Shown: positions 6,359-41,582 of the stretch, piece by piece | Numbering within the stretch: position 1 is the stretch's first letter | How the letters are laid out: every line of letters begins with the position of its first letter | Source: Dimargaris cristalligena | Taxonomy: Eukaryota | NCBI GenBank assembly: GCA_003614675.1 | Contig: ML002325.1 | Coordinates: 1-41,637 of the forward strand | Length of the DNA stretch: 41,637 nt | Reading direction: 5' to 3' | Position numbers and translations under genes: made by a program | Notes under the pieces: model-generated | The model's input: the letters and a program-made list of their open reading frames with translations, nothing else | Told to the model about the DNA's origin: nothing | Database searches by the model: none

Positions 6359-7057
6359 ATGGCATTCTATACTCAACCCCGCCCCGTTTTATTAATAGGG
6401 GCGTTCTTTATTCTACTCGGCATCGGTCTCTTCGCCGGCAGCCGGGTCGTTGCCGTTGACTATTACTATGGTAATAGCACCTACCAGACGGCTTCAGTAC
6501 AATACTACGGTCTAACCTGGTCCGGCGTGGCCGCATTCGTCATTGGCTGGGGTTTCGTGGGCCAGGGATACTACCTTCGGAAGCGCCGGGTAAGTGCTAA
6601 GTGGCAGTGACATAGTTTGCGCGTAGTAAGCAAGGTGGAAAATCCCCACACTCGACTAGTATTTCCTTCAATTGTAATGGTTGACCCCCCCCATTTGAAT
6701 GGCTGGCTGCAGCTATGTTCCAGGTAGAGTGTCGCACTAATAACATATCCTTATTATTCCCCATCTCGCTTTGGCTAACGGGGCCTGGTTTAATAAAATA
6801 ATCTCTTTTTGCAATTTCAGATTGCTGCCATCAACCAAGGTTACGCTACTCCGTATCCACCAGGGGTCCAGCCCGCCGGTTTCTACCAGCCCCAGCAGCC
6901 CCCCGCCATGTACCCAATAGCCCCCCAGATGTATCCGGCTGCTCCCGGTATGTACCCCCCGCAACCGCCCATGAACCCCGCTCCCAATGGATATCCCCAG
7001 AAGCCCGTTATGAGCCCGGGGTCCTATGTTTACCCACCCCAACCCGCCCACACTTAG
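6359..7057 (+). CDS. Small two-TM membrane protein, 155 aa (exons 6359-6589, 6821-7057), Pro/Tyr/Gln-rich tail
   Basis: Two TM segments followed by RKRR. GTAAGT donor at 6590, GCTAAC branch near 6774, TTTCAG acceptor at 6820. This joins track ORFs 6323..6610 and 6809..7057 in frame. Confidence 0.85.
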
Positions 7058-7514
7058 GAGATACCCAAGATTTAAGCGTTCACTCGCTCCACCAGCCTTC
7101 CACGTTTTGCTCATCTGTGACTGTTTAAAATAATGACTGTGGTCAATAAGTGTAACGACCCGGTCGCATAGTCTAACATACTAAATAGCGGCTAGTCCGT
7201 CAAAGCAGTACATACCGTTAATTATATAGCAATTTAGTACTTAGCTGTGTTTTCCGTTGCATCATTAAAATAAATAAATTATTAAATAGTTAGCTACATT
7301 TCCATATGCTTGATAATTGGCTCAGTTGCTATCATCGAAACAAAAAATCGGAGGCATTTTGCCCAAAGTTGTGAGGTCACCGCGAATCGCACTATAATAT
7401 AGAGTACCGCTGCCGGCTATTGGATCCACTCTAAAGCTGCACACACTATTACTGATTAGTCGTCCGCCCATCCATCCCGTAATATTATAAAATTACCTCA
7501 AAACTTATATTTTC

Positions 7515-7632
7515 AGTTGTGGCCATATGTACCAGTTTGCACCGTATCCCGTTAGATCTGCGAAGTTAAGTTGGTATCAGCCAATTTAGTACTGAGGTGG
7601 GTGACCACTTGGGAATAGTTGGTGCTACAACT
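7515..7632 (+). rRNA. 5S ribosomal RNA (dispersed copy 1)
   Basis: AGTTGTGGCCATA...GCACCGTATCCCGTTAGATCTGCGAAGTTAAG...TAGTACTGAGGTGGGTGACCACTTGGGAATA...GTGCTACAACT is colinear with fungal 5S. The terminal helix is AGTTGTGGC/GCTACAACT and a T6 Pol III terminator follows. Confidence 0.97.
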
Positions 7633-7953
7633 TTTTTCTATTATTATGGATTTTTTGGCACAACCATTCCCTTTTTACTTTAGGCAAAATGGGCACTATT
7701 CTATAAGAGTGCAGGGAAGATATTTATTGCTAAATACGTAAATACTAAAATTATATTTAAATGTCGACATAGTAATATGTATATATAAAAGATGGAGTAG
7801 TGTAGGTAGATTGGGCCGATACGATTGAAGGGCTTTTTTAAATGATTACATAATGGAATTCCTATTAGGGCGCTCTAGGTGTAGTCAGTTGTGGAGGAGA
7901 CAAGGTCTCAGGTAAAGGGGGAAAAAAAGAAATAAGTATGATACCGTTACTCA

Positions 7954-8454
7954 TTAAGACTGGGGGAACTGAACGTGCACTTCGCTATCACGACTCTTCC
8001 GACGAGGTGGCGGCGGCACCCCACTGCCGGGGGCCTGGGAATAGGAGGTGGGTGCGCTGATGTACTGGTCGTCCGCATCCGAAACGTCCGCGTTCCGGCC
8101 CATGGAATGCTGGGGATAGCCGGGGGGACCACCGGGCTGGTGCATCGGTTGGGCCATGCCGACCGCGGGATGCTGATGATGTTGAGCCCCGCCGTAGCCT
8201 TCTTCACTTTCGGCCTTGTTAAGGTTCAGCAGGGACATAATGTGACCAAGTACCAGCAGCAGACAACCGGCCACCAGAATACCCCAGGAGGCATAGATGA
8301 GGCGACGGCTCACCTTATGGCCCATGTACTTCTTGCGGGATACGCGGGTGTGGATCCCGAAAAGGATAATGGCCACGACCATAAGAAAACTGCCAAAGGC
8401 CGAACAGCCAATGGCCAGCCGGCGTTGGGCGCCGTAGAATTGGGGGGAAACCAT
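7954..8454 (-). CDS. Small two-TM membrane protein, 166 aa, single exon, Pro/Gly/His/Gln-rich tail with PPGY
   Basis: Clean ORF with two hydrophobic helices and a low-complexity tail. A TATATAAA box lies on the minus strand near 8748-8755. Confidence 0.8.
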   Translation of the reverse strand: MVSPQFYGAQRRLAIGCSAFGSFLMVVAIILFGIHTRVSRKKYMGHKVSRRLIYASWGILVAGCLLLVLGHIMSLLNLNKAESEEGYGGAQHHQHPAVGMAQPMHQPGGPPGYPQHSMGRNADVSDADDQYISAPTSYSQAPGSGVPPPPRRKSRDSEVHVQFPQS

Positions 8455-10804
8455 GGTGGTGCGGATAGGAGGGTTAGGTGGGGGGTAAGGGAGGTAGGCG
8501 TAAATGGTTATAAGCTCAATGATTTAAACAAATTAATCAAAGTGCGGTGGAGGGGGTAAAATGGGTGGTAGAAGGAGCTGGTTGCTATAATAGAGCTAAC
8601 GAACCGGATTTTTTGGTTACAATAGATGAACCGGGAATTACAATGATCATTAATTAAATAAAAACACAATCATCGGTTGAGGAAAGTGGGCATCTATGCA
8701 AAGTTAAGTCAATGAATAATTCGACCAGAGTAGGGAACGGCAAGCAGTTTATATATGGGCAGGTCCAGGCAGGCAATATCCGGTGCGAGGTGTAGGGTGA
8801 GACCAAAGGAAGCCGTGGAATACTTATCGAGGCCCTCATATTATTATTATTATTTAAGATGGTGAGCGAAGAAAAGTCGGCGAGTCTAGTTTAGTTTCCC
8901 GCCAAGGTAACGCAGGCTGTCGAAGCAGATGTGTGACCAATCGAGCAGCCTGCTTTACTGTTTTCTCGCCCACTAACAGGGAGAGAGATACAGTGATCCT
9001 GCCGTTCATTTACCTATACTATGTATCAATAATAATAGTGAGCGTTGAATACTTGGGCAAGCCAAACGTAATTGTAGAGATAAACGGGTGGCTTTTGAGG
9101 ACAAGAACGTATTCAGGGCACACCTGTGACGTATAGTGGAACAGGTTGGGACTAATACGACCGCACCTTTTACTTGTCCCTTTGGATCCAACGGCTAGTT
9201 CAGCCCAAATGCATTGCTATACAGCCAACTCCCGACAAAATGATGGCCAAAGGGGAGGGAAGGCCCGTTCTATCAACCAACCGGTCTCTATGAAGGGTGG
9301 ACCGACGGCCAAAGTAGGCCATTTTTGCAGCTTTCGCACTGGCTATTACCCATATCAACGGGCGGCCGCCGCTAGGTTGGTACACCGTTAAAGGACACAC
9401 AAACCGCTGGCTCGTGCCACTCTGGCTTCTTTATGCGTCACTCGACACATGTGTAACTCGGCTGCGCTTTACACGCTGCTCGTCTCTTGGACAAGGATAT
9501 ATTTTTCTAGCCTTCCCTATTCTCCCTCGCTTATATTTCCGTTTCCGTTTCCGCCTCAGCTACTCTTCTCCCCCCTTTAGCATAATTTCCAAATAAGACC
9601 ACTGGCCCACCAAAAAAATGCCGAATGAGACCAGTTTTTTTCCCTTACACAGTACACCATTTTAGGCAATCAGCTAGCTTCCTTTCTTTTGACTATTTTT
9701 GAATTGCAGCAATGGTATGAGAGGTTAGATTTCGAGATTTATTTTCGCAGTGGTCTTGCTATTCAATCTCCGCCCGTTTCCAAAGAAATGGGCGCGTGGT
9801 CAGATTAATTGGCTGCACATACTAGTAGTGGTTTGGGTTCGTGAATTAAAGAACGGATCAGGTAAAATGCTATTTAACTATAATAAATTGCCTGCCTGAT
9901 AGAATACTATGAATGTAATGGATGGTCCGGTTTAAAAAGAAGTGGTTCGAAGAGTGGACCACGCCTATCTATAAAAATAAACTAAAATAGGAGATGGTGG
10001 TGGGTTTGCATTGGCGAATCCTAAACAGGACGACTAGAAGCGTCGTATCGGAATGACGGTGGTGTCACAATAAGTGAATGAAAAGGGTCGGTCGCCCTGT
10101 TTAATAGTGGTTCTGGCCCTTGAAATACGGCCGTCTCTAATACTCAATAAGTCTCCCCTTGTTTACTTTTCCCCCATTTTACTGTACCGGAGCCGACATT
10201 CGTCTAGCAGTTCCTAGCTACCATCACTTATCGACTCGACGAGGAAGCAGCCTATATTAGACTAGACCGAGCACTCGTGACAAGCCTTAGAGCGGCTGTA
10301 TGCAACTCCAAGGGTAGATGACAATGCCCAAAAGCATCGGGCCAGGTTCAGCACAGACTACTATTACCCCCCCTCGGCCGGTTAGCCTGTGCCCTTGTTT
10401 TGGCTTCTCTGGTCCTACAACAGTGGGCTTCCATGGAAGGGTGTGGTTAAATATGAATTCTTAAAGCGCAGAATAATTGCCACATTTAGCCTGCGCCAAG
10501 CCTTTTGCTCGCAACACCTTTCAATTGGTATAATGCAATCACAAGTCCCCCTTTATTCATTGGCAATTACATTTCGTAAAAGCAGTGACCCACCTCGAAA
10601 TACCGAAAAGGCGGACTATTCATCCAACTTTTAGAATAGGCCGCTGGAATCTTTTATTCTAATGAATGCCTCTATAATATAGTAAAGCGCTTCAATACAA
10701 CTAAATAATACAATATATACGACTGGCAGCTCCTTTTTTAATACCATGCTGATATTCAACTACGGTGGCACAGCTCGGCACACCAAAAGCTCTACTGGCT
10801 ATAC

Positions 10805-12666
10805 CTAGTTTTTCTTCCGCCTCGGCCTTTTAGCCGCACGGACATCCTTTGTTATCGCTGGTAAGTCGGCTGTATCTGGTATTAAAGTCTCTTGCACGAT
10901 GGGGCTTTCGACACCCCGGACAGGCGGCAGGTCGGCAATGAACAGAACCTAATAGTAAAATGGATGGTGTATTAGAAAAAATAGGCGATTAATATTAAAT
11001 TTGCCGGGCTCATAATAAGTATCAATGATTCACAAGACCGTGTACGGTTTACTCCCACGGCATGTACTACAGTGAAACCTCCGCCCTGGTTCAATTAAAT
11101 ATTAAGAAAAGGCCATCTTTGTATTTACCGAGTGGGCCCACCCGGCATGCTGTCCGAACAAGTCCCCGAGGTAAGAGGCCACAGCTTTGTAAGCCGTTGT
11201 AGTCAATGATTTGATTGGTTTACTAGCAGCGGGGGACTTGGCCGGAGAGGCTGAGGAAGGTTGGAATTGGTAGTCCCGAACAGCGATTTGCCAAACATGG
11301 GTGTCGACGGGTATAACCTCCGATTTATCCAGCGACATGAGACACTGGAATGGTATAGCGAGTGGTCGTGAGTAATAGAAACGCTCCACGCGAGTGAGTT
11401 AGGGGGTTTAAATTAATTGGGTCTAAATTGACATTGCAAATTAGTCCCGGAGAAAGCTACTGGGTATTTGGCCACATGGCTGATAGCAAATGCCGGGAAT
11501 ATATAAATTAGGCGCTTACGATGCAGTCTGCCACCTTGGGGCCGATTCCGGAAAGTTTCAAAAGAGCCGAATGGGCATCGGCGTAGCTTTTGTCTCGTAA
11601 AGAGTGGAGCCAGCTTTCGGCCTCCTCCCCGTAGGCGTCGGCTAAATAAGCCACGGTTTTACTGATGTATTTGGCCCGATAGCCGAAGCCAAGGGTCCGC
11701 AAACGAGCCTCCAAATCCGGAGATACTGTGGAGGAGGGCAAAGACGAAGGAGAAGAAGGAGCACTCGACGAGGCCAGTGCGGTTAAACGAGGAAAGGTGT
11801 AGAACTCGCTACCGGCCACCGTGCCCAGTCGGTGACCGTACAGTTGGCAAAGAGACTCCACCATTTGGGTGATACGGGAAATATGGTTGTTGGAAGAACA
11901 AATGAAGGATATGAGGTTTTCGAAGGGGTCTTGCCGGAGTACCCGTACACCCGGAAAACGCAGGGCTTTGGTCTGGAAATTGGGGTCGAGCTCAGACCAG
12001 CGCTGGTAGCAATCATTTAAATTGATATGTAGTTGGAAATAATCGCTGAGCAACGACTCGGTAGTCGCTGACGGTGACGGGGTTACGGAGCCACCAGCAG
12101 TTGTAGATTTAACAGGAAGAGGCTCGGTGGAGTATGTCCTGAATAATGTCGTTTGGTCTGGGTACCAGGATATACGGGAATTGACATAGACCCCCCAAAA
12201 AAATACAAATGGAAGGGGATCGGCACCCTTTGTTTATTAGACAATTTGACTCAAACTCCATGGCCAGATTAGTGGATATTCCCGGGCTCTGAAATACTAA
12301 ATTGACCTACCTGTTTGCTTCAAAGTCACCAATCGGTCACCGACCACCCCCGTCCTAAAAACACGCCGAGAGATGCAGTAGGTATAGAAATCCGGGTATT
12401 AGATTTCAGTATAGTGTTGACTGATTACCCTAACCATTTCTCGGCCTAGTTTAGCTAGTTATCAATCAAAGCCGTGGAATGAAAGAGTAACGAATTGGCC
12501 GTATATGGTTTTAGTACAGAAAGAGCCGAGGACTACAAAACTAAAGTCGGGCATACCATTCCTCGGGTGCGGTTTGCTTCCAGCGGAACGACTGACCCGA
12601 ACGAAGCGTAAAGCCAATGCGCAATTCGGGTGGGGAAACCTTAAGGTCCTTCCATACGCGTGACAT
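10805..12666 (-). CDS. OGG1: 8-oxoguanine DNA glycosylase/AP lyase, 383 aa (exons 12666-12557, 12354-12311, 12157-11520, 11344-11129, 10948-10805)
   Basis: Motifs present: GQSFRW, DYFQL, GVRVLRQDPFENLISFICSSNNHISRI, LGFGYRAKYI, HhH GIGPKVADC (catalytic Lys), PVDTHVWQIA (catalytic Asp), AGWAHSVLF, and a C-terminal KRPRRKK. All introns are GT-AG with consistent phases. Confidence 0.97.
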
Positions 12667-13142: not shown

Positions 13143-13854
13143 GTCATACATTTTTACCCCCTGGATGGCATGCAGTGATAAGTATGTGCTTGAGTGCGGA
13201 GAGGAGAGGAGAGGGTGATTTCTGGTTATATTTCCCCCCTGATACTTTGGACTTTCGCCAGGGTTTATATAAAAAGTATTCACTCGTAGTTGTCGTTGAT
13301 GAACCATGTCCAACCGCATAACTCACTGACTACCAGTGGTTATTAAAAGGGGCAGCTCTCGAGCAACACCATGTAAAATCCATTCAATCATAACAATTAC
13401 ATAATTACGTAGTACTGCAATCAATGGAAACTCCACATTGCGGTCTAGATTTTAAAATTTCGGGTATTAGCTAGCGATTGATATGTACGGCCACTCCAGC
13501 CCAGTTTTATTTATAGGTATTCTACCAAACACCCAGCCCCCAGACACAATGGACATGGGAAACCGCCTGGGCTAAATTTAAACCAAAACGGCAGTCGACT
13601 CAGCCGCACCTGTGGCCTGCTGACCCTCCATTGCGATGCTACTAGTTATCAGCCCAACTTTGCCAGCATTGCGAGAGCAAGAAATACAGGGGAATGGCGT
13701 TAGTAAAATAATCAAGTGATGTGATGGCTTCCACCATTAGGGGCATAGGTTCAAGTTTCGGAAGCTAGAACCGTATGCTGATTTAGAAATACAAAAGTTG
13801 GCCGATTCATTGAGCGAGGGCATTATCTGAAAAAAATCCATAATAATAGAAAAA

Positions 13855-13972
13855 AGTTGTAGCACCAACTATTCCCAAGTGGTCACCCACCTCAGTACTA
13901 AATTGGCTGATACCAACTTAACTTCGCAGATCTAACGGGATACGGTGCAAACTGGTACATATGGCCACAACT
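13855..13972 (-). rRNA. 5S ribosomal RNA (dispersed copy 2)
   Basis: Exact reverse complement of 7515-7632, checked base by base, with the same T-run terminator. Confidence 0.97.
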
Positions 13973-15721: not shown

Positions 15722-16678
15722 TTATAAGGAGAGAGGAGGTGTTACTCGTCCTATAAACTATCCATCTGCCCCCATACAATAGCGGCCCGCTATTCTATTA
15801 GCAGCACCCTTTCCCGCTCACACTGGCCAACAAAACTCTTACACACCCCACCACACAGACACAGACATACACAACACATCCCACATAAAATAATGGAATG
15901 GACTTATTACTACTACTACTTATAGGTAAAACGGCACATCCCGCCTGGCCGTCCAATTTCTTTCCCTTCCCTCTGTCCCTTTGTTCGCAGCTGCCTGTGC
16001 GCCCCATGTTTGCTGGCTGTATGCTTCTCTTCCTTCCGTCTGTGTATGCGCCTTCGTTTCTTTAAACTTTGCCATCTCTCGTCGCTTAGTGTTTTGTCGT
16101 TTCTCTCTTACTTCCCCTCAGTTTAATCTGCTTGTGCATTTGTTCAAGGCCTGGTTCGTCGTTTCAGACCGTGCTCTACTTCCGTGTAACCGTCGGCGTC
16201 CTCACTGCTTCCTTATACATAGAAAGAGAGAGAAGAGACCTTCGCTATTTCTACATACCCACACCACGGCCTCCTTCTATACTACTAGTAATAGTCCTCT
16301 TCGCCGGCTGTCGGGTCTCCTCCTCCCTTCTTCCCCTACCTACCCAACTAACTTCCCTCGCAACATACCCGCACCGCTCTACGCCTTGCCATCCCCGATT
16401 CTGCCCTAACATTTCGGTTCTCCTCTACCCTCTCCTCCCACTGCGTCAACCGACATCCAAGAAGCGCGTCTCTGGTCGTACCCCGGGTTCTTCATCACCC
16501 TTTCCTTTTACCCGCTGCGTCGCTCTACCCCATCCGGGGGCCTATTCCACTCTAGTAGGACCACGCGTACTTCCGGCTTCTTCTCCTCCCCTGTCTACAC
16601 CATTGGCCGATCTCACTGGCGACCCACACTGTTGTTTATTCTCCTGGCCCACCGACAGTGCCCCTTCTTGAGCTTCTG

Positions 16679-17269
16679 GTAAGTCACCACCCCCCACGCT
16701 CGTTAAAAGTCCCCCAGGCCACTTTAGCACAGAGGCCTTCCCCGTATTCACTGGAGGGCCTGCTGAAGCTACTTCGGCTTTTTTATTTGGCGTATATGTC
16801 GGTGTTTGCGCTTCTGTGGAATATCTGCGTTTATTCATTGCTATAGGCCGTTACTATGGCTTTTTTTCCGGAGTGATGATACTTTTGCCTTGAGGGGCTC
16901 GCTCCAAAGCTACTCATCCAATAATGCTACTGCCCTGAGCTACTCCAGCCCCTTTGTATTTGAACCTTCCCCTTCTTATTCAGTAGACCTCATTTTCTAT
17001 CCATTGCCTGTTATTTTTGGCGGTCTTCTGTTCAACGTAGCTCCAGCCGACTTTTTCTGTTTTCTGTGCTTTAAATGACTCTGTTAACTTGTATGCTGCA
17101 CCGCAGTCCCTTTTTGACTTCCTATCACTCGTTTCTGAACACTCCATATTTTATCAATATCTTGTTTTTAATTTTTCCGACCCCAACTGTATGAATGGTT
17201 GTTAGCTAATGCCCTTGTATGATAATACTAATCTCTGTAATTAATAATCAACGGTATATCCCTCCATAG
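16679..17269 (+). other. Probable 5'-UTR intron of the PSR1-like gene
   Basis: GTAAGT donor at 16679, TACTAAT branch at 17226-17232, CATAG acceptor at 17269. The flanking leader segments are ATG-free while the intron contains several ATGs. Confidence 0.6.
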
Positions 17270-17464
17270 AGTCCACTCATCTCCGTATTTCCCAGTCCGT
17301 CGCATCATTTTTGTGATCCTACCATCGGCCTCACTGTATCTGGCGACTTAGCAGCGTGGTCTAGTCTTCATCTATCCTATTTCCCCTCAAATTCCCGTAT
17401 TTAGACACCACTTCTCTGGTCTCTCAACATTCTGACCCGCCCTGCATTTAGTTTGCACCGTAGG

Positions 17465-19404
17465 ATGACTTCAGTAGCCACAATAACCAGCCCACCATCG
17501 ACCACTCATGTGGATTTAGCGAATCCCGCCAAACCGACCACAACCCATGTCGGTCCGGTAACATCAAGCGGGTCCACCGTCGGTGGCGAAGAGTCGGAGC
17601 ACCATACCGCCGATGGTGTCCAACAAGTGACGGGGCGGCAATCCTTTACCAAAGAGGGCAAGCTCCGCCTTCGCAAATGGTCTAGTAAGTAGTCTAACTC
17701 CCACGTTGGTTTATTTGCATGCCATATCAATATATATATATGCTGTTGTTTATGAAATGGCAGGTCGACGGGTGGGCGGACGCTGCTTGTATTATTGCGC
17801 ATATAGACTGACAGACTTCTAATGATGGGCCTTTATGGGGGCTGGAGTGGAGGCGTAGCTGCTTGACTTCTGTCCTACCTTTACTGAGCTCACCCTAAAA
17901 TGCCCCTACCCGTCCATCATTCACTGCCGCCGTTCCCTCGCCCGCCATACCGACCGGGACCGTCGTATTGGCCTACCGGCAGATTACCCCATTCTAGTTC
18001 GCGTCCTACTGGTTATTGACCACCTTTTCACCCGTAACGGTTGGTATATCACTCCACTAACCTGCGAGTACATCGGTTCTTTTTCTAACCATACGATATC
18101 CCCTCCCCTCTCTCTCTGGTCCAATTTTGAATATCCCACCACTCTCATTAGGCGTTATGGGTCGCCGCATGTCGCTTTCCAACAGTCGGTCGACAATCCC
18201 CAAAGTCGCACCCTCTCCCGAGCCCACGAACAACTCCAGCACTCGACTTTCTATATCCGATCGGACCAAGCCCAGCAGCCCTTTCTCTCCCCCTCCCAAA
18301 CCATTCCGGTCTTTTTTCCTCTGCTGTGGTGGCTTCTTTCCCTTTGCCAAGCCCCCCCGCCACCGCGATTATGAGCGCGCGGCGACGAGCATGGACGACC
18401 AGGCTGTCAATCCGGCCGCGGGCTCGACCAAGCCCGGTCAACCGGGAGCTGTTGGTCCTACCGAATCCAACCCGAGCCTAGGCCTCAGTACATCTAACGA
18501 ATCCCACCCTATGCTGCCCCCTATTTCGTCCTCCTCGCCGTTGCTTCAGGATATCATTACCAGTGTTTCGGTAGAAGATGGTCTAGATGACAAATCACCT
18601 ATTGCCTCCGTTCACCCTGACCACGGCATCATTCCTATTTCCGTAAGCGAACTCGAGCCCTACGCCATTCCGGAAACCAGTGCTCCTGCCCGGGCCGACG
18701 TTGAATCTGCCAAAGATCACGCCAATGAAGAGGACCACAGTGAAGATGATGATGACGACGATGATGATATTTCGTCGGACGAAGAGGCCGCCCTCCAGGC
18801 TAACCCACAGCTCAATGAAATTGTGATGGCCACTGCCCAAGTGACCCCGCCCCTCCTCCAGCCTCTCCTACCCCAGGATATGGGCAAGAAGTGCCTCGTA
18901 CTCGACTTGGATGAAACCCTACTCCACAGCTCCTTCCGTATGGTGGAGAACCCCGATTATATTGTCCCCGTTAAACTCGAAGGCCAGACCCACAATGTGT
19001 ACGTATTGAAGCGTCCAGGGGTCGACGAATTCATGAAGAAGGTTGGGGAGCATTTTGAGGTGGTGGTCTTCACTGCCAGTCTGTCCAAATACGCCGATCC
19101 TGTCTTGGACCTCCTGGATATCCACAAAGTGGTGCGCCACCGACTCTTCCGTGAATCGTGCATTCTATACGCCGGCAACTACGTGAAGGACCTTTCCCGG
19201 ATTGGACGCCCGCTGGGTGACCTCATCATTGTCGATAACTCCCCCGCTAGTTACGCCTTCCACCCCAATAATGCCATCCCCATCACCACCTGGTTCAATG
19301 ACACCCACGATACCGAACTCTTGGACCTTGTACCGTTCCTTCTCGACCTTAAGGATGTCCCTGATGTATCCACGGTTCTTGACAACACCAACCCTACCGC
19401 ATAA
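17465..19404 (+). CDS. PSR1: PSR1/PSR2-type (CTDSP/NIF, FCP1-like HAD) protein phosphatase, ~490 aa (exons 17465-17684, 18152-19404)
   Basis: [17 protein letters not shown] (DxDxT), [52 protein letters not shown]. An FFLCC putative palmitoylation motif and an acidic linker are also present. Phase-1 GTAAGT...TTAG intron. Confidence 0.93.
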
Positions 19405-20916
19405 GTCCGATTATGTTTCCCTCTCATTCCCGAGCCCCCCCCCCACCCCTCCTTCCGCACCTCTCTTCGATAGGCTGTCATTCCCCGTGGATCTACACGT
19501 GACACATTCCATCTAATTCTCCCTAGTCTTATCCCCCAACCCGCAGTGTTTATTTTCGTTTTGTTTCTCTATAATACTCCCCCACATCTACACATTCGCT
19601 CTTCATATCTTCCGCTGCGGGGATTTTAGCGGGATTGCTTCCACCACAACCTGTTGGTCGAGAGGCGGCTATACCATTTCACCTAAACTGACAGGGAAGT
19701 CACTCTATTACCTTTGTCGGACTCTCGATCGGTCGGCCTACCTATCAGCTACGGCCCCGCGTGTCATTATCCCCGATCACCCTCTTATTTATCCTCGAGT
19801 GTTACCCCTAATGTTCTGTACTTTCATGCGCAGTCCTCGTATCCCTAGTCGTTTGTAAAACGGCGGATTATATTTTTATTCAGCCCTTTTTCTCCCATAA
19901 TTTTATCTGTATTTGCCCTCTTTAGGCGTTTATTACTATTCGGTTTATTATTCAGTTGATTTAGTCTTCCGCTACCTATCTATGTACCGCCTCACTATTT
20001 TATCCCCAAATTTTTTGGTCTCTTATATTTTACTGAACAGCTCGGCTTTCTGTTGTGACTGGTTATATTTTATATATCAGCATTTTACTGTCCCATCATC
20101 GTTGGGGTTTTTTTCTAAGTTTTCTCCGTATCTACCGCTTTATTCCCAGTTTTGTGTCTGCCATACCGTATCGTCCCTACCATCCTCCTCTTATTCACCC
20201 TCTTACTTGCATCGTGTACTTGTAGCATGGGAGAGTCTTTCATTGGGGCGAATACTCTGAAGATTCCACTCCGCATTCTATAGTTCGCCGGCTTTTAATT
20301 TTATTATCTGTCCTGTCATCGATACCTCTTTTAAGATTCATTTTTATTCTATTATTATTATTATTTATTTTCTTACCCCTTCTCCAAACTTATAATTCAC
20401 CCCTTGTTTTCTGCTATAAACACCGTTTTACGTGCAGATTCTTTGAGTGGCATTCATAATCGGAAGCCTCGTATACCCCGTGCTGTTGCAGTATGTTTCA
20501 AAGTGTGGTTGAGTAGATGGCGCTTGTAAATCAAGTTGTATATATGTAGAAAGGTGGTGGTTTTAATTTACAATAATTAAATTTCGAAAAACAGTGCCCA
20601 CGGACTAAATGCCAGCTCATGCGGTTGGGTAGTTCGTTGATTTTATCTATAGTGTTCAACTTGGCTACTAATAAGTTAGGTGACGTTATGATAAAATTTT
20701 GCCGGGACTAAGCTAATTGTTTGATCCAGTTTCATCAGTGGTATTCACCACCAATTTTCCAACGCCTACTATTTATGCCATCCGAGCCAAGGTGGTATCG
20801 CGAGTGGTGGCTGAAAATACACTAATTCAATGGGCCTTTCAATGGATATCGACAGGATGCGATCCTTTCCTTTCGGTGTTCAACTGGCTCAGGGAGGGGA
20901 GAGGGGTGGAGGTAAT

Positions 20917-23282: not shown

Positions 23283-25011
23283 ATGGGAGTGCCCGTTACA
23301 ATGTCTTTAGTCTGGCTGCACCTACTGGCTATTGTCGCCACCACAACGGTTGCCGGTGTTTCCCAATCGATTTATCACCCGGCCATGGTAATTTCCGGTA
23401 AACCAGAAGTCAATACGCGCGGGACAGACTGGTCGGGAGGCTACCAGCTCCCTCCGAAGAGGTTTGTCACTATGTCACCAGTGCTTAGTTCGGACATACC
23501 CGACGAACCGGCGTGGATTAAAAAGGACAGCAGCATTCGCGTCCCCAAGATTCAGATTTCCCAGGTAAATATCCTACTATTTTGATTTTTCTATAGCATG
23601 TCCTCGTACTTTGTATAAACGTTCGAGCCAATTCGCTTTCCTCGTCAAGCTTGGCTCGGGGTATAGCAATCAGTAGCGCACACTCGCCACTCCGAGAAAC
23701 CACTTCCGTCCGCACATTAAAACCAATATATAATAATATTTTTGAACTTTGCCTAATTCCTCACAGTTTACGGCCATTTTGAATAAGAAAAACGAAGATA
23801 GTGATATATTCTGGAGTCAAGCTAGCTGGGACGAATTTGCCCGCGAGCTCGAGGTGGCCGCACCCTTGGAAACCCGCGACACCTACTTTGCTGAATTGAG
23901 CAACTATCTAGGCACTACTTACGGCTATACCCCCAGCCCCCGACCCAGTCCCATGAGCGGAATGTCTATTGATCCCTCCAGCGACATTCCCTCCGAGTAT
24001 ACCCAAATGCTGCGTCGTATTGAAGGTAACCACCACCTGTCCCTCAACTCACGCGTGGTCGTCAATCTCGACCAGCTCCAGCTCGATGAGATTCTCCGCA
24101 ATTTCCCTTTGGTGACTTCGGCTACCTGTAAGACTCTGTTGGGGCTATTTAAACTCATGTTGGCCGCGGAGTCCAACCCGGTGGCAGGTACCGTGTTGAG
24201 GGACACCCTTGAAATCTACAAGAAGTTCCCGGACCACACCCTACTTGCTCCCAAGTACTTTTTGACGGTGGCCGACCGCATCATCATGGTGACCTTGTGG
24301 TGGTTTTACCGGATCGGGCAGGTCGACAATGTGGCCCACTTTATCGAGTCGGCCGGGAAATATACGCTGAATAGCCCAATCTACCGACCAGCCTCCTTCA
24401 AACTAGCCGGTTTATTCGTTCGCTACGCCCAGCTGGCTATTACGCCGGCCACTTTTGAATCAGACCACGATTTCATCCAACGTATCGAGGGCCACTGGGT
24501 TGAAGTGCACACCCAGTTTTTCACTCCCAGTTTCACATTCGCCGAGAGCCGGACGGCTTTCCAAATTTACCTACGTGACCGGGGCCTCACTTCCCCGCTC
24601 CGCTACCTCAATTCCATCTGGGGGGCCGTGGACCCCTACACGAAGAGTATCCCCGCTTGGCCGCACACCGACGACTCGGATTACCAGTGGTTGACCAACG
24701 AAGGTCATTTGTTCACGACCATTCCCTCGGGAACGCTATCGGATTTAGAAGGGATTGATGTGGCGACAGCCCCTCCGGCAGCGTTTCAGGGCGGTATGCC
24801 CACGCCCTACTGGTTCACCACTCCCAAGGAAGACCCTAAGAAAAAGAGTCGCCTGTCTAGCGCAAAGTCGATTAAAACGGTATCGACGGCCTTTTCCAAT
24901 CGTCAGTCTAGTTTGGCAAGCGTCAAGTTGAAGAATAAGACAAGGCGAAGCTCACAAATTATTACCAAAGTTAAGGACTTGTTCAGCTCCAAAAATCGGG
25001 ACACTTATTAG
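23283..25011 (+). CDS. Hypothetical secreted protein, ~508 aa (exons 23283-23564, 23767-25011), Lys/Arg/Ser-rich C-terminus
   Basis: Hydrophobic N-terminus MSLVWLHLLAIVATTTVAG (start at 23283 or 23301). CAG|GTAAAT donor, CCTAAT branch, CACAG acceptor, phase 0 into the 420-aa ORF. Confidence 0.8.
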
Positions 25012-25881: not shown

Positions 25882-25954
25882 GTTTCTATAGTGTAGTGGT
25901 TATCACGTTTGCTTTACATGCAAAAGGTCGCCGGTTCGATCCCGGCTGGAAACA
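25882..25954 (+). tRNA. tRNA-Val(TAC), intronless
   Basis: Acceptor stem GTTTCTA/TGGAAAC with discriminator A, D-arm TAGTGTAGTGGTTATCAC, anticodon arm TTTGC-TT-TAC-AT-GCAAA, T-arm GCCGG-TTCGATC-CCGGC, and a downstream T-run. Confidence 0.97.
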
Positions 25955-32988: not shown

Positions 32989-35526
32989 TGCGAATTGGAA
33001 TCGAGTGAACGAGTGCTGACTTACGTTCGCTGGGGAATATCGGGAAATAATCACATTACCACACACTCCTTTCCTCCAGGAAGAATCGAAGAGTACGCAC
33101 GGGGCTTCAATGAGCCGCCCAGATCGGGGGAATGTGACTGGTCCATCGCTCAGAGAATAATGCGCTTGGTTCATACCCTCGGCTCGGCTGAAGGGCAAAG
33201 ACCCAGCCGGGTTAGTTTGCAAATGGGCAATCCGGACCATAGGAATAAACCCCCTCCGGCCTGTTCTTTGCATGACAGTACGCTATAATAAATAGTCGGG
33301 CACAGTGCAGCGACATGTATTCATTAATATAAGGATATCTTCGGTGTATGTTTCCGAGAGGAGGATGGGGGGTGGGTAAGCAGCCGCCTGTCAGTATGTA
33401 GAAGTTTGTGGGCGGAGGAAGGTATACTGCTTGGTCAACCCCTTTTAGTTATCCGGTGCTGATCAACCGGCAATAAAAGTGTAAATCATCTGTAGATGGC
33501 TCCTAATCATCACTGGGAAAAGCCGGCTAGCTATATAGGAGAAGACGGGTTAGGGGGTAGAACATAAGCAAACCTATGCTCCAGGTGCAGTTGCCGGACT
33601 TTGACCATACTCAATCACCACGCCGGCCTATTCTTTATGATTGGGCGTTGATCTTTAGAAGGCTCTTCTTCCAGGGGGGAGAGTGCGAGAAAAAGGGACG
33701 CGAGTTTCTTATGTGATTCCCCTCCTATACTCTCCTTTGAATAAATCAGCGGGTAGTTCATGGAGTCATAGTCCAACTTTCTAGACCACGATAGGTTAAA
33801 TGACTCGGAGAGGAGGGGGCGAAAAAGAAAGGCGGACGTTAGTCCCAGCTGTTCTCACCCGCCGTAGACTGTTTCTAGCGACCATTATTCCCTCCACCTT
33901 TGTTGAACCGGTAGAAGCATGGCTACTTATACAAACCGTTATCTATGTGTGTGCCTCTACTACATTGACTAACGGACCATTATTCGAATAAATTGTTGGT
34001 TAGAGTTTAATTGAATCGGGTCGGGGTATTGTATAGTAAATTTATCAGATTCTCTACAGACCAGCGGCACTCTGCCTCGTAAATCGTCTACATTAATCAT
34101 TTAACGACGTCCCCGAGCACCCGCTCTAGAGGTGATTAGTTTCAAGCAATCCCTTCGGCTCGCCAGAAGATGTCCTTCCAAACCACCTCCCCGCTATTGG
34201 CTCCTTTTGAGGGCCCGGGGTACCGGTAAAATGGTCGCCCCAAAATTGGTGAAAGGGGCCTAGATAAACCCAGGGTGCATGGCGGGTGAATAGCGCCCTT
34301 ATCGAAGTAACACCGATGGGTGGTACACTGTATTCTAATACAGCTGGTACGACCGCCCACCCTTGTCTTGTACCCTCAGCGATATCTGGTGTTACTTCCA
34401 ACTGTTGGACATCAGCTGTTCCGCGTTCATTGTATTAGGTGCGGGCGACCCCATTGGGACGACCATTGGCTATCCGCCGTGCGAGGGGCAATTTATCAGA
34501 GCGATTAAAGTTGGGCGGGTAATAGCCCACTTCAGGATTTAAGGTGAATAGAATTTCCCCGAATTGTGCTTGGCGGGATGCTTGGTGATAAATCCTCAAA
34601 AACACAATACATTTATTCAAAAAAACTGTGGCTGGAGCAACTCTTCATGAGCCACTTCTTACTAGTTCACCGTTCCGATAGTGGGCAATCCAGCTATCGG
34701 AAGGGTGTTAAAGCACTTCCGGGGCAATTGCATGGAAACGCTACTACTGGGAATGCGGAAGGTGTATCATCCAGGGAGAACAAAGAGTGGGTAATGGGGC
34801 TCGACGGACGAGGGCAATAATACCAAAATGGTCCGGATGCGGGTTCAGGCTCTTTGCAACGCCCTTCAGCCTCGACAGTATCGGGTGGGTATCAGCCCAT
34901 CTCGATAAATTCCAATGCAGTGGGAGTGCCCATCATCCCCTCCAGTATGGATTTTAGGTGGTCTAGCTTAACTGTACTGTGCAGAACTGGGCCAAAACCA
35001 CACTGTACTGGGGGGAGAGGTGGACTGGACAGTCTCCTCCCCCCTCATCCACTGTTTTATTCGGGCTTTACCATTGGAGGAGTAGGAGGGACAGTCCACC
35101 AGTGGGAGGGAAGGGCCAAGTATGAGAGTCACCCGCTTGTTGGATGGGGAGACCAACTCTTTGCCTGGCTCACTGAATTAAACAATAGCGGACAAATTGT
35201 CCCATGGTAGATCCGATGGGACTAAGTAGCCACCACATCAATGAGAGGGGGTGGTATAATAGAGGGAATGAGGTACACACAAAACCCGGTTGCCCAACCA
35301 TTCTGAGAAATGGGGCCCCCCCACCCTGGGCTTTGGAACCCTCTTCCTGCTCTACCTATTGTTGAACCAGGCGACACAGAACGGGAAAGATGTGATCGTC
35401 ACGACCCCTCTCCTCCCCCTCACCAGCTGCCAAGACTCACTAAAGTCTTACGTCCCTCTCTCTCCTCCTCGTCTCATTACGCAGCCAGAGCCAAGCCCGT
35501 CTCTCTCCCCTTTCCAAGTGCTCCAA

Positions 35527-35533
35527 TATAAAA
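35527..35533 (+). promoter_or_regulatory. TATA box (TATAAAA) of the microprotein gene
   Basis: Canonical TATAAAAG followed by a pyrimidine-rich, ATG-free leader to the ATG at 35702. Confidence 0.6.
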
Positions 35534-35701
35534 GCAACCCGGTCGCCCAACCAGTTTGCCTCATCATCATCGCCCGCTCGCTCTTTATACCTCTCTGCCC
35601 GTCTCTATTGACTCGCTTAGGATTCCCGACTACTCTACTGCCCTGCGCTACTCCTCTTCCCGCACCCTCTCTCCCTCCCATACCTTTAAACCCTTTCAGG
35701 C

Positions 35702-36505
35702 ATGACCATGTATCCGTTGATGAATCTCATTAATGTCGGCAGTAATGTATCGTTCCATCTAACTGTATTTATATATTGAACCCATATGGGATATCCCTTT
35801 CTTTGATAGAGAGGTCCCTCCCAGCCGGGATTTGGTGTCGCGTGGAAATGGCCTTGGCATATGGGGGGATAATAGTCTCCCCTCCCCACACTAACCGTTT
35901 CTAATGGCGCCTGGTATATCCCCGTGTTCGATTAGTTGGACAGGTTGGACTTTGCCCACCAAGCTCTGACCCGGCTAGGCATAATTATGCCTATCCACAC
36001 GGAATTCCATTGGGCAATTATTTATTGGGTTTAACCCTCTTCGGCTGCAGCCAATAATCTGACCTCCCTAACCCCGAGTACTAACTAAACTATTATCCCT
36101 TATCTCTGATTGCACTATTGCCCTCGTTTTTCACTGTTGCTCTTTCGCTGGTGCGCTTCCCCTCCCCCTGGTCGACCCCTCACTACCCAATCACTGTTCC
36201 ACCCGACTATGGTTACACTACTACCCGGTGTTTTTCGTGAATTGAATCCATCGCCGATCATTGCCTGTAATGCTTTCGTCACCACCCTTATTTCCTTCGC
36301 ACCTATTTGCTTTACACCGTGTTCCGCAATCTTAGGCCGTCTCATCTTTACCGTAAGGGACGCCGATTCGGGGGGCAGTGAACAGAAGGAGGGCACCGTC
36401 GTTTACATTGTACACGACGGCGACAACACCAAAATGAATGCCGAGACGGAAGACGGCACCATCCACTACCTTCGGCCCGGCGACATCCGACAGCTGCTGC
36501 CATGA
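35702..36505 (+). CDS. Putative 61-aa microprotein (coding exons 35702-35709, 35936-35943, 36336-36505), possibly a small SH3-like beta-barrel
   Basis: ATGACCAT|gtatcc...actaac...ttag|TTGGACAG|gttgga...tactaac...cttag|GCCGT joins in frame to MTIWTGRLIFTVRDADSGGSEQKEGTVVYIVHDGDNTKMNAETEDGTIHYLRPGDIRQLLP*. The last exon has coding-like C/G-ending codons. The micro-exon boundaries are less certain than the last exon. Confidence 0.6.
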
Positions 36506-39058
36506 GCTAACGTTGGTCCCCTCCTCGTCTGAGTGTTCGGCCTCCATATATCGAATAGAGGTGGTCATTTCCCTCTCTCTCAGTCGAGCATCATCTGGCC
36601 AAGGTCGAATAACCGGGATTCTGGGAAATTATCTCGTCATTATACGTTCCAGGCCCAATCGAACGGCGACACCCGCCCTCCTCCCACTGGTTATTTGCCT
36701 CGAAGGATACGCCGCTCCCATCTCGCTCCCACTTCCCTCTGTATTTCAAATATGACCCCGACGCCTTTCGCTGGGCAATCAACCTCTTCTTCCCCTTCCA
36801 TTTTTAGTCTCCTTTACCGTGCTTTGTCAACTGTAGGGTGTTCACGTCATGGCTCTCTCCGACGTTTTTGTGTCTGCGTCCTCTCTCTCTATGATTCCAC
36901 ATGCAATTCCCATCACTGTCTACATATCTCATCCCGTATTTATTTCACGTTCACTCTTATGTTTCGAAAAGTGTAGTATTGCTCCCCCACCCACCCTTTT
37001 CTTTCTCAATGCCTTAGTCACTCCAGTCAACTAGTAGCGGGAGGGGGGACTTCTGGGCTGGCCCCAGTTAGACTCTACTATCTCTTAGGTTTCCATTTCG
37101 CTCGCTGAGTCGACTCGAATCCACTCATTTTACTCCCCAATCCGGGTTATACCTGTCATTATTAACCTTCCAAGGCTGAATCCATTTGGCCTAGTAATGT
37201 CTCTATTATTTTTTACACGGCCGCCGACTAATGGGCTTCGTGATTATTGCCGATATTTCAACTTTTACTCCACTTCCACTGCTTACCCACAGTGGATGCA
37301 GACTTCTTTAGGTCCAACTGAGCCATGTTTATTCTCCCCTTCCCCGCCCTTGCTTCTCGATATTGCATTTCTTGCGCAAACCTACCTTTCCGATTGACGC
37401 CTACCATATATACGGGTCCGCTTTCCCGCCAACCAGGGTTTCCGTGATCCACCGGGCTTATTGCTTAGCTCCCACCATTATTTTCCTGTGCCATATTGCT
37501 AATAAAATTGCTTAAACCGAGTCTGGTTGGTTGGGGTACTCTTTGCCATTTTCTTGGAACTCTGTGGAGCAGAGGTTGGTTCTGTTCAACATGCCAATAG
37601 GCTCCATGGTAGCATTTTCATTTTGGCTAAGTGGATTGGCTTGTTCCATATAGAAGACTGCTTACCTAGCTTCTCATCAGTAGGAATATTCTATTACATA
37701 TTATTGTTTTTCCGTCTTGCCCAATAGACTCGGATTGGTCAGATCAGGGCGGGAGGATGGCCTGGCCAAGCTTAAGCATTTTCCTCCGGGTCGCTATTAT
37801 CTGGCTGAGTTTGAACCATCGGCATTTACTGGAATGGTTAATGTATTTCACTGTGACTAGAATTGATTGCTATATGTTATAATATTATATAGCAGAGGGC
37901 ACCATCGCCAGACCAATCCAGACCCCAGCCTTCCCGCGAAAGGGCTAGTTACGGCTGAACCTATGTACTGATGTAGTTTACCTTAACTTCATCAGTTCCA
38001 CAGTACACGCGGCACCACGTCCAATAGGGTCGACAATATCCCCTCCGCCGATGTCCCTTTCACTCCACTCTAATCGACTCCTTGATTCCCTTTATCCCTA
38101 TCTTGCGTTGAAAAGCGAGTTACCGGTTCGGCAGTGAATAAAAGGTAAGAAGCCGAGTGACTGGGGGTGTAGATTTCGGCCCAACCAAGATCGCCTCTTT
38201 GTGAACTTATTATCCGTTCCTGTACTGGCCTCGGCTTTCAACTCGTGGGTAGAGAGTGACCATCCAAAGTGGAACTACTAACCCTGGTCGGTAACTCGGT
38301 TGGGTGATCCTTGGCGGAAGCCAGGGGTGTAGTGAGCGTAAAGGACTGTGCGGATTACATTCAACGAACACTACGTTGGCAGTGGAGGAGGGGAAGAACC
38401 GCTGATTAGTCTGGCGATTATTGAACGATCCAATGACCATGTGGGGTCATCCTATGTTAGGATGGTCACAACCTGCTGAATATAATGGTGTGGTGCACAG
38501 CAAAGCCATGAATATCATCGAACCAAGGCAAGCGATGGGGGGAGGTGATCCCCTTACAATGACTTCATTTCAATCCCATGCTAATGAGAGGGTGGGCAGT
38601 CTATCGCCTTAATAGTTTAAATGAATGGGTCGGGTCGTAGATGGCTAATACAGCCGGCGACTAGATGCGGTTTATTTAGCATTCAGCTTTTACAAATCTC
38701 ACTTTAACCGTAGTGTTGGGCAAAAAAATAGCCGGCACCAATGCATTCAATATTGTATGGTCAATACAATAACATATATTCCCTTATACGGTCGCATTTA
38801 TGACTAGAAATGCTTTTAATTAGGACTTTTCCCGACTGAAACAGTGTCCGACATAAGAAGTTTTAACTAACAAACCAACGTATTGTGATGATTCGCTTTT
38901 TTCCCGAATTTTGCTAACGTCACCCTCATTTCCGCCATCACCCCTATTCACTATATATTTTTTCCCTTGAGAGAGGGTAATTTTTAAGCCTAAAATGACA
39001 CGGTAATCCTTGACAAGATGGTAGGTTGTATTGGTATGTACTTACGTCTGCTATATAT

Positions 39059-40029: not shown

Positions 40030-40251
40030 TTAATAGTTACAAGTAATGTAGTCACCATTCTGGTAGCAACGAGTGCCGGGACCGCACTGGAAGTTCACCG
40101 CGGTACCGAAGTTGCAGACATAAAAGCCCTTGTCGTAAGTTCCACCGCAACGCATAGTACCGGTGGCGCAAGGAGGGACGGCGTGGGACTGAGTGGCCGA
40201 TACCGAAGCGACGAAGGCGGCGGCAGAAAGAATGGCGGCGATGAGCTTCAT
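40030..40251 (-). CDS. Small secreted cysteine-rich protein, 73 aa, CBM19-like putative chitin-binding module
   Basis: Signal peptide MKLIAAILSAAAFVASVSA and a C-x2-G-x3-C...F-x2-C-x2-G-x6-C-x2-GT-x-C...C pattern (6 Cys). TATAAAA lies on the minus strand at 40417-40423. Confidence 0.85.
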   Translation of the reverse strand: MKLIAAILSAAAFVASVSATQSHAVPPCATGTMRCGGTYDKGFYVCNFGTAVNFQCGPGTRCYQNGDYITCNY

Positions 40252-41582
40252 GGCGTTGGCGGGAAAGGGTTGTGAAACGCGGGGAGGAAGGTTCCGGGTG
40301 TTGGAGCAGGGGGTGGCTTAACGAGTCGAGTGAAGCAGCGCTGGAAGAGATGTCGAATGTCGGACGAGATACAGAAGATGTTGGTGATGGAGAGACTGAA
40401 GAGGCGAGCTCTGCATTTTTATACGCAACCTATGTTGTGCAAATAGTATGCAGACCAACATCGGTTTCGGCTCGGTTCTATTCATTTTACGAGTCACGGG
40501 CGGTGTAAATTCCACTTTTCCACATTATTGAAAGCGGAGCGGTAAATAGGCCAGACTAGGATACGCAGTATGGCTTACTCAAGCCTGCCATGATATTTTT
40601 ATCACAAGTGCTCAGTCAGTCCAACTAAGAGAGTCGCTTATGCTTGGTGCGGCATCAAAATATTGCCATCCCATTAATTTATCCCGCCATACATATTTAG
40701 TGCTGGTTTCCATTTATGGCGGGCTTGGCTTATGATCAGCGGCTCTAGCATGGTCTTCTATACATCCTTGGGAATGATGCAGACGAGGGAATTGTGCCAT
40801 GCCATTGTTTACTGAATTTCACTATATGTTTAGTATTGTTAGCCGGAAAACCCCGTTTCACTTCAGCGCACTTGTTAGCCCCACCTTAGTTCCCAAGATG
40901 GCGATATTCATTTCAGTCAAATGCCAGGCGGAAAAAGGGGCTACGGTCATGTACCAACCTAAAAATATTCTCGTCAGTCAATCATCATTGCGTATTCTTG
41001 AAAACACGAAGTTAGTATGGGCAGCCCAAATCCATGCCCTGAAGGACTGGTGATCTCGAGATGATTATTGAACACCCCCTTGCCATTGCAACTCACATAT
41101 TTCATGCCAGGCCAATTGTTCATTGCTGTTTCCTTCTCCACACCCCTCCGCCACTGATAATTATTTAAACTGCATGAACTATTTTTGGCATGTTACAGCT
41201 GGTCCCTCTTCATTAGCTGGATAAAAGGTGATATCGACCATCCTTCTTATATAACCGCTGTTCGACTGATACGTCGGTGATATGGGAATTAATGGACTTG
41301 GGGGTTAAAAATAGGTTGATGGTCCGTCATGTGGGCGATCTGTGAAAATATTGACTATGGCGAAGGCCTGGGTTACTGGCTAAAGAGTAGGGCGAGGCCC
41401 TGGACAGTGACGTCTGCACACCTCTTTTCCCAGGAATAATCTAAAATTAACTCAAACCCGTGGTGGTTTATGTTGGTCACTCGGTGTTTTCTCCCTAGTC
41501 TGCCGAAATGGATTGGCCACATTTAATCGAATTGTTAGGCTGAAGCGCAGTAAGTTGGAGAGCCATTGGTTCTTACCTCATA

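Follow-up and report, generated by a model that had tools for sequence, protein, structure and literature searches.

A candidate species-restricted small gene of Dimargaris cristalligena whose last exon follows a long AG-free tract

Does the + strand of Dimargaris cristalligena contig ML002325.1 carry, between a TATAAAA motif at 35527 and a stop codon ending at 36505, the gene for a small stand-alone protein, and if it does, how are its exons joined? The locus lies in a eukaryotic window of 41,637 nucleotides (nt), the whole stretch of DNA that was analyzed, which holds few long open reading frames (ORFs); the source species is identified by the peptide in question and by the OGG1 protein of the window, each of which is 100% identical to a D. 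cristalligena database protein. The original prediction had read the locus as a hidden gene assembled from two 8-nt coding micro-exons and a 170-nt last exon. The reading that we favor, at about even chances, is that of a real, species-restricted small gene on the + strand in the form in which it is already annotated, with 69 amino acids (aa) encoded in two exons.

The terminal exon and its 3' splice site

The best-defined part of the locus is its 3' end, where the last exon adjoins a tract of unusual composition and where the splice signals can be set beside those of OGG1, whose four homology-supported introns served as our standard for verified splice sites in the window. The features concerned are the following.

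36336-36505, + strand: terminal coding exon, 170 nt, opening with a split codon and continuing with 55 complete codons to the stop codon TGA at 36503-36505
36078-36335, + strand: AG-exclusion zone, pyrimidine-rich, with no AG before the acceptor
36079-36085, + strand: TACTAAC, putative distant branch point with which the AG-free zone opens, at 250 nt from the acceptor
10808-12666, - strand: OGG1 glycosylase gene, five exons and four introns, with family support

The segment 36336-36505 looks like a real terminal coding exon. A codon log-odds model trained on five gene-like ORFs of the window gave 36338-36502 a score of 20.6 bits over 55 codons, a value matched by only 2 of the 1,028 stop-free windows that had no part in the training, both of them in other probable genes. 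A later version of the model, in which the exact OGG1 exons were added to the training, returned 19.7 bits (0.36 per codon), a score at the 90th percentile of windows from real genes when each gene in turn is kept out of the training (leave-one-gene-out). This coding signal begins at 36335 and stops at the TGA, with a score of about zero for the 75 codons by which the open frame extends upstream. With its pyrimidine fraction of 0.46, the exon is also the sole island of balanced purine content in a + strand domain of ~2 kilobases (35400-37500) that is otherwise CT-rich, and self-comparison of the window revealed no second copy of the locus, only trivial repeats. As the original prediction had pointed out, the ORF list displays this frame solely as the tail of a 131-aa, TTG-started ORF (36110-36505). 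Its broader claim, that a stand-alone small protein with its ATG at 35702 and its terminal exon at 36336-36505 is encoded here, is likewise supported.

The 3' splice site that would deliver this exon, with its acceptor AG at 36334-36335 in the context TTAG (36332-36335), is well supported, and it is unusual. The AG-free gap that ends at 36335 measures 257 nt and is the longest among the 4,767 AG-to-AG gaps on both strands of the window, the runner-up being 167 nt. The depletion is specific to this dinucleotide, as AG occurs in the zone 0 times against ~6 expected from composition while GA (6), AA (8) and GG (4) are at expectation, and only 20 of 20,000 composition-matched shuffles were without AG. 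The pyrimidine fraction over the final 258 nt before the exon is 0.68. The segment ending here thus has all the elements of a GT-AG intron, namely a GT donor, an AG acceptor, a branch-point-like motif and a pyrimidine tract before the first AG, and, as at exons whose branch points are distant, the tract without AG ahead of its acceptor is far longer than usual. TACTAAC occurs at 6 sites in the window when both strands are counted, and a CCTAT located 30 nt ahead of the AG at 36335 is an alternative candidate branch point.

The verified introns of the species look different. Mapping OGG1 (P0008), which is recorded on two contigs, onto the window gave intron lengths of 202, 153, 175 and 180 nt and the donors GTATGC, GTAGGT, GTAAGC and GTAAAT, and in 4 of 4 introns a TCTAW motif lies 24-31 nt ahead of the first AG; TCTAW may be the branch-point motif of D. 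cristalligena. In place of TCTAW, CTAAC or CTAAT is present, at ~42 and ~11 nt, in two introns that are predicted only (near 6590-6810 and 23565-23759). The nearest likeness to the arrangement at 36335 is found in the human exons with distant branch points and AG-exclusion zones, which, according to the available text of PMC1431707, share with it a long AG-free, pyrimidine-rich stretch that runs from a branch-point-like motif to the 3' splice site. The likeness has its limits: in the human exons, as that text describes them, the branch points were mapped by experiment, whereas here the organism is a fungus and TACTAAC is a candidate from sequence alone; and the verified introns of D. cristalligena, unlike the human AG-exclusion exons, reach their first AG within 24-31 nt of TCTAW.

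The 5' part of the gene

How the terminal exon is connected to a start codon is less clear. The features upstream of the acceptor are listed here, including those of the annotated gene model and those that the micro-exon model requires.

35527-35533, + strand: TATAAAA, candidate TATA box by its position, 175 nt upstream of ATG 35702
35534-35701, + strand: candidate 5' untranslated region, pyrimidine-rich and ATG-free (pyrimidine fraction 0.70 over 35400-35701)
35702-35741, + strand: exon 1 of the annotated model, followed by the donor GTAATG at 35742
35742-36335, + strand: annotated intron, 594 nt, donor GTAATG
35900-35935, + strand: candidate internal or alternative 3' splice site, TTTCTAAT and then the first AG 32 nt on
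35936-35943, + strand: proposed second micro-exon, TTGGACAG, with donor GTTGGA; the sole AG-N8-GT segment in the interval

The 55-aa peptide of the last exon has one match among 5.8 billion clusters, a protein of 69 aa (P0001, 'hypothetical protein H4R33_001290 [Dimargaris cristalligena]') to whose residues 15-69 it is 100% identical. Joining 35702-35741 to 36336-36505 across an intron of 594 nt reproduces P0001 exactly. The gene is thus neither hidden nor undescribed, as had been claimed, for its product is already present in NCBI as a 69-aa hypothetical protein, in a record to which no function, family or expression evidence is attached. The two-exon model is the sole stop-free, in-frame two-exon join that starts from ATG 35702. 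The codon score of exon 1 is uninformative (0.9 bits over 13 codons), and the 5' part of the gene, meaning exon 1 and any middle exon, appears unsettled. The length of the intron fits the species, for which the available text of PMC8042348 reports a gene density (242 genes/Mbp) lower, and an intron length greater, than in any other of the fungi compared. Across the locus, intron included, no Rfam family reached its gathering score and the matches stayed at chance level (E values of 0.25-9.7), which leaves the idea of a long intron that hosts a small nucleolar RNA unsupported, within a database whose coverage of early fungi is poor. The annotated intron also contains a palindrome of 12+12 nt without spacer, 92% complementary, at 35973-35996.

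Upstream of exon 1, the TATAAAA, the ATG-free leader and the first ATG at 35702 that the original prediction had described are all present in the sequence. The motif is not enriched (10 in the window compared to 10.15 expected), and ATG is absent from 35393-35701, so that the first ATG is that at 35702; the ATG-free leader is weak evidence, as 32% of shuffles of the 175-nt leader are likewise without ATG. Further upstream, ahead of the TATA box, an open frame at 35284-35583 (+ strand) that is rich in Ser, Pro, Leu and Thr reaches a codon score of 26.5 bits; the codon model was probably misled there by CT-rich composition, an upstream exon being the less likely reading.

The original prediction had joined 35702-35709, 35936-35943 and 36336-36505 across introns of 226 and 392 nt into a 61-aa product, a structure that we consider improbable. 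Its 8+8+170 arithmetic is right, giving a stop-free, in-frame product of 61 aa that starts with MTIWTG and differs from P0001 in its six-residue N-terminus while sharing ATG 35702 and the 55 residues of the last exon. The acceptor at 35935 does have the appearance of a genuine 3' splice site: the combination of TTTCTAAT and a first AG is found at 7 of the 4,767 AGs in the window, 3 of which are verified OGG1 acceptors. Splitting the 594-nt interval also brings the intron lengths nearer to the verified 153-202 nt, and among three-exon models that use acceptor 35935 only a middle exon of 8 nt or 93 nt keeps the frame. The 93-nt form (35936-36028, donor GTTTAA) scores -9.6 bits, below 98% of real-gene windows, and was rejected as coding. 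At the second donor, CAG/GTTGGA agrees with the usual donor consensus on the exon side and at +5, which we counted for the micro-exon model.

Against these points, if GT and AG are the only requirements, ATG 35702 can be connected with the last exon in 70 three-exon models that keep the frame and avoid stops, and in 13 of them the middle exon does not exceed 15 nt, so that an in-frame micro-exon join is not evidence by itself; nor is the single AG-N8-GT segment of the interval, since chance alone would supply 1.9. Both donors depart from the verified set, as neither the T at +3 of the second (GTTGGA) nor the C at +5 of the first (GTATCC) occurs in any of the four OGG1 donors. The MTIWTG N-terminus is found in no database protein, the near-length search having returned the 69-aa form alone, and two consecutive 8-nt coding exons with the ATG in the first would be exceptional. 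The proposal that two 8-nt micro-exons form the structure of this gene was therefore not upheld: that they are in frame is its sole support, and the NCBI record holds a plain two-exon model. Functional microexons are said in the available text of PMC11121469 not to have been described previously in filamentous fungi, and the microexon of Trichoderma virens Xlr2 reported there would be the nearest fungal precedent. That case rests on transcripts, whereas the model here has two consecutive 8-nt exons and is derived from the DNA letters.

A wider reading, to which we give a similarly slender chance, would combine these elements in a gene for an SH3/Tudor-like mini-barrel that is lineage-specific and possibly of de novo origin, with a branch point ~250 nt upstream of its last exon and a 257-nt AG-exclusion zone, and with acceptor 35935 also in use, leading either to an 8-nt coding micro-exon or to a switch between productive and unproductive isoforms.

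In the two-exon gene that we favor, transcription would start downstream of the TATAAAA at 35527 and translation at the first ATG, 35702; the one long intron from donor GTAATG at 35742 to 36335 would then be removed, as the annotated model predicts. The acceptor at 36335 would probably be served by the far-upstream branch point TACTAAC at 36079-36085, or else by the CCTAT at -30. A distant branch point would explain the absence of AG from the last 257 nt of the intron.

Relatives, fold and the rival readings

Searches with the last exon, to which the original prediction had looked for homologues, recovered no credible relative beyond the protein itself, both with HMMER and with word searches of protein databases; in the word-indexed searches, proteins of near length gave the protein itself and longer proteins gave no match. 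The bacterial and archaeal genomes searched also held none. The HMMER matches P0002-P0007 are bacterial surface proteins of 857-2,200 aa with up to 16 short repeat stretches, and were discarded as matches of composition or of beta-strand pattern. A second group of candidates, the viral loci L001-L005 and the metagenome loci L006-L012, encodes a family of ~405-aa proteins that shares the octamer IHYLRPGD with the query and was discarded as a chance 8-mer match. The pairwise BLASTP score between this family and the query, 32.7 bits over 48 residues, would carry no significance in a search of a whole database, and the family is absent from the HMMER matches. Six of the loci were opened (L001 and L003-L007, with proteins of ~402-411 aa), and the match of the remaining six falls on the same residues of the query. 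The family in its own right, from viral and marine metagenome contigs (for example L006:862-2097), carries a conserved GDIHYLRPGD motif and has no Pfam family.

Profile searches were equally sparse. At an expectation value (E) of 10 or less, Pfam returned only Fn3_arc (E 0.007-0.015, 15.8-16.8 bits compared to a cut-off of 28.9) and CopK (E 0.045-0.073), with no Tudor, chromo, SH3 or KOW family among the matches and thus no profile that would place the protein in the Royal family. PHROGs and NCBIfam gave no match for the peptide, and the best match in a PDB sequence search (E 0.75) was an unrelated PARP14 macrodomain. The neighbors of the + strand peptide in the ESM Atlas are unnamed phage clusters of ~70 aa at 0.93 (185 of 256 features) and DUF3104 at 0.90, which we treat as a lead only.

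The structure prediction is more informative about fold class than about relatives. From the single 69-aa sequence, and without control predictions, AlphaFold2 gave a best model with a predicted local distance difference test (pLDDT) score of 69.0 and a predicted template modeling (TM) score of 0.49, in which strands span residues 7-11, 15-21, 28-41, 44-51 and 56-59, one of them derived from exon 1. The 69-aa product is accordingly predicted to be a five-strand, SH3/Tudor-like beta barrel, and it has no obvious signal peptide in its sequence. Foldseek found no match at E <= 0.001; its top matches were the Tudor domains of SETDB1, ERCC6L2 and UvrD and an SH3 domain, at query TM-scores of ~0.5-0.58, and chromo, Tudor and SH3 barrels lead the matches overall, with scores under the usual noise level of the tool. 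The structures compared from the Tudor/chromo 'Royal family' and the SH3-like barrels include the RBBP1 chromodomain (6bph_A) and the Tudor domains of RDM15 (7de9_A), SETDB1 (5kch) and ERCC6L2 (6hq9). Unlike the chromatin proteins of the Royal family, the 69-aa protein stands alone, and it shows no sequence similarity to them. The earlier guess of a small SH3/Sm/KOW-like barrel akin to the BirA C-terminal domain thus fits the five-strand model in its general form, while the Foldseek matches are weak and the likeness to BirA (1wnl_A) is non-specific, being weaker than that to ~35 other barrels and without sequence relation. Going by its fold class, we take the view that the product would serve inside the cell as a small module that binds a peptide or a nucleic acid, which is the weakest step of the proposed mechanism.

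A number of observations weigh against the favored two-exon gene. No homologue was found in other organisms, as HMMER against 1.84 billion representatives returned the protein itself and six non-relatives, and none of the proteomes of Dispira, Tieghemiomyces and other Dimargaris, which the OGG1 search had located in the database, gave a match; OGG1 of the nearest relatives is only 50-55% identical to that of D. cristalligena, so that a fast-evolving 69-aa protein could escape detection in these fungi or lack annotation there. The annotated intron is about three times as long as the four verified introns (594 nt compared to 153-202 nt), its donor GTAATG carries a T at +5 and a G at +6 that are seen in 0 of 4 verified donors, and a second good-looking acceptor, 35935, lies inside it. 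Other dinucleotides are also missing over long CT-rich tracts of the window, as is GA over 266 nt at 15901-16168. The five AlphaFold models spread in pLDDT from 69.0 to 44.9, with all but the best at 59.7 or lower. The P0001 cluster consists of one sequence from one contig, whereas OGG1 of the species is found on two, and a second annotation of the species may therefore have missed H4R33_001290. The locus has no transcript support, and no RNA run is listed that covers 35450-36650, although such runs may exist. Low-coverage Kickxellomycotina genomes are described in the available text of PMC9866270 as annotated ab initio without transcriptomes, and if that procedure applies to the H4R33_001290 record, the public model is itself a prediction. 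Lastly, the sense score of the exon exceeds the antisense score by +2.6 bits, compared to 15.5 +/- 8.6 in real genes, a likelihood ratio of only about 3:1, and codon usage thus separates the strands poorly.

This last value bears directly on the possibility of a minus-strand gene, in the form of an intronless 78-aa ORF (36568-36335) that starts with an ATG at 36566-36568. Such a gene would require no splicing, it scores 15.6 bits over its overlap with the + strand exon, and its ESM recognition value of 2500 equals that of the + strand peptide. The codon signal of the antisense frame is, however, confined to the overlap, amounting to ~0-2 bits per 15 codons over the 21 codons with which the ORF begins, as is expected of a mirror frame that inherits a codon-like composition. 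On the + strand the flanks are rich in pyrimidines, as are those of other + strand genes, the NIF phosphatase gene among them; out-of-frame ATGs lie within ~30 nt upstream on the minus strand; and the + strand AG-exclusion zone would be meaningless for a gene in this orientation. The best ESM Atlas neighbor of the antisense product stands at 0.87 with 78 shared features, compared to 0.93 and 185 of 256 for the + strand peptide, and the ORF is not annotated in the database searched and has no family in Pfam or NCBIfam. We regard a minus-strand gene as very improbable. It is also improbable, if somewhat less so, that the + strand terminal exon is real with a different 5' part, whether as an intronless 98-aa ORF from ATG 36209 (36209-36505), as ATG 36209 followed by a 69-nt intron (donor GTAATG at 36267), or with exons further upstream. 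ATG 36209 shares the frame of the exon and has an A at -3 and a G at +4, the 98-aa ORF is free of introns, and its hydrophobic N-terminus resembles a membrane anchor (Kyte-Doolittle maximum of 1.97 in a 19-residue window); its first 42 codons score 0.1 bits, yet 17% of real-gene windows score as low or lower, and thirteen other combinations of ATG and donor are present. These 42 codons nevertheless lie inside the AG-free, pyrimidine-rich zone, which resembles the 3' end of an intron and not coding sequence, and the coding signal of the frame starts only at 36335 and not at ATG 36209. There is no obvious TATA-like element just upstream of ATG 36209, ten ATGs intervene between the TATAAAA and 36209, and the public predictor chose the spliced model over the 98-aa ORF.

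A more serious challenge is that there may be no protein gene here: the frame would be open by chance and codon-like in composition, in CT-rich DNA that is either intergenic or transcribed without coding for protein, and the public model would be a false call of ab initio prediction. We hold this to be unlikely but well short of negligible. Consistent with it are the orphan status of the protein among 1.84 billion representatives, the single database record together with the lack of a listed RNA run for the locus, the weak donor and unusually long intron, the weak contrast between sense and antisense scores and the weak structural matches; the codon model, moreover, has a false-positive mode, seen in the 26.5 bits of the CT-rich segment 35284-35583. 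A chance frame of that kind accounts poorly for the exon, which is not CT-rich (0.46) and yet stands at the 90th percentile of real genes, with signal borders that coincide with an acceptor and a stop codon. The AG-exclusion zone ends exactly at acceptor 36335, AlphaFold arrives at an ordered all-beta barrel from a single sequence, and the closest ESM neighbors of the + strand peptide share 185 of 256 features with it. On this balance, the annotated two-exon gene is the reading that we retain.

Genomic setting and significance

The remainder of the window provides a setting in which strand and splice signals could be compared. Its other assigned features are the following.

+ strand, in the window: NIF phosphatase (NLI-interacting-factor-like) ORF, with family support
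7515-7633, + strand: 5S ribosomal RNA, 102 bits to Rfam RF00001, among protein genes
13854-13972, - strand: 5S ribosomal RNA, 102 bits to Rfam RF00001, among protein genes
25882-25954, + strand: transfer RNA for valine (anticodon TAC), alone in an AT-richer, ORF-poor stretch

In 8 of 8 gene-like loci, C exceeds G on the sense strand (GC skew at 1-kilobase scale), with family support for OGG1 and the NIF phosphatase and ORF-based assignments for the other six. The flanks and introns of + strand genes are likewise pyrimidine-rich on the sense strand, at fractions of 0.62-0.70 (35400-37500, 16000-18100 and 19402-19900). Pyrimidine richness and C>G skew of the sense strand could therefore be usable as a strand indicator in the D. 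cristalligena genome.

Several smaller observations were made elsewhere in the window. A TATAAAA at 7486-7492 lies 29 nt upstream of the 5S ribosomal RNA at 7515-7633. Three small ORFs, at 4867-5130 (+), 6323-6607 (+) and 7957-8523 (-), each contain a hydrophobic, membrane-like segment, and those at 4867-5130 and 6323-6607 show a weak resemblance to each other (29% identity over 68 residues, pairwise E 7e-4); judged by their sequences, the three may form a local family of small membrane proteins, and Pfam holds no family for any of them (the region 7942-8556 included). An ORF at 40033-40317 (-) begins like a signal peptide (MKLIAAIL...), continues as a Cys-rich sequence and scores 21.6 bits in the codon model, and its strand also has a TATAAAA at 40417-40423. 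The ORF may encode a small secreted protein, and its Pfam matches are all sub-threshold.

On present evidence the result at 35527-36505 is an ordinary one, a small orphan gene that is already in the public annotation and for which the micro-exon structure is unsupported. It carries a lesson for similar predictions, in that an in-frame micro-exon join alone proves nothing where, as here, 70 alternatives exist. If acceptor 35935 is truly also used, an early-diverging mycoparasite would here possess 3' splice sites arranged and regulated in the style of animals. Independently of that, the 257-nt AG-free zone headed by TACTAAC offers a concrete and cheaply testable case in which a fungus may use a distant branch point. 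To our knowledge there are almost no experimental protein data for the Zoopagomycota, and the gene, if expressed, would be a clean example in this group of a species-restricted, 69-aa, all-beta protein.

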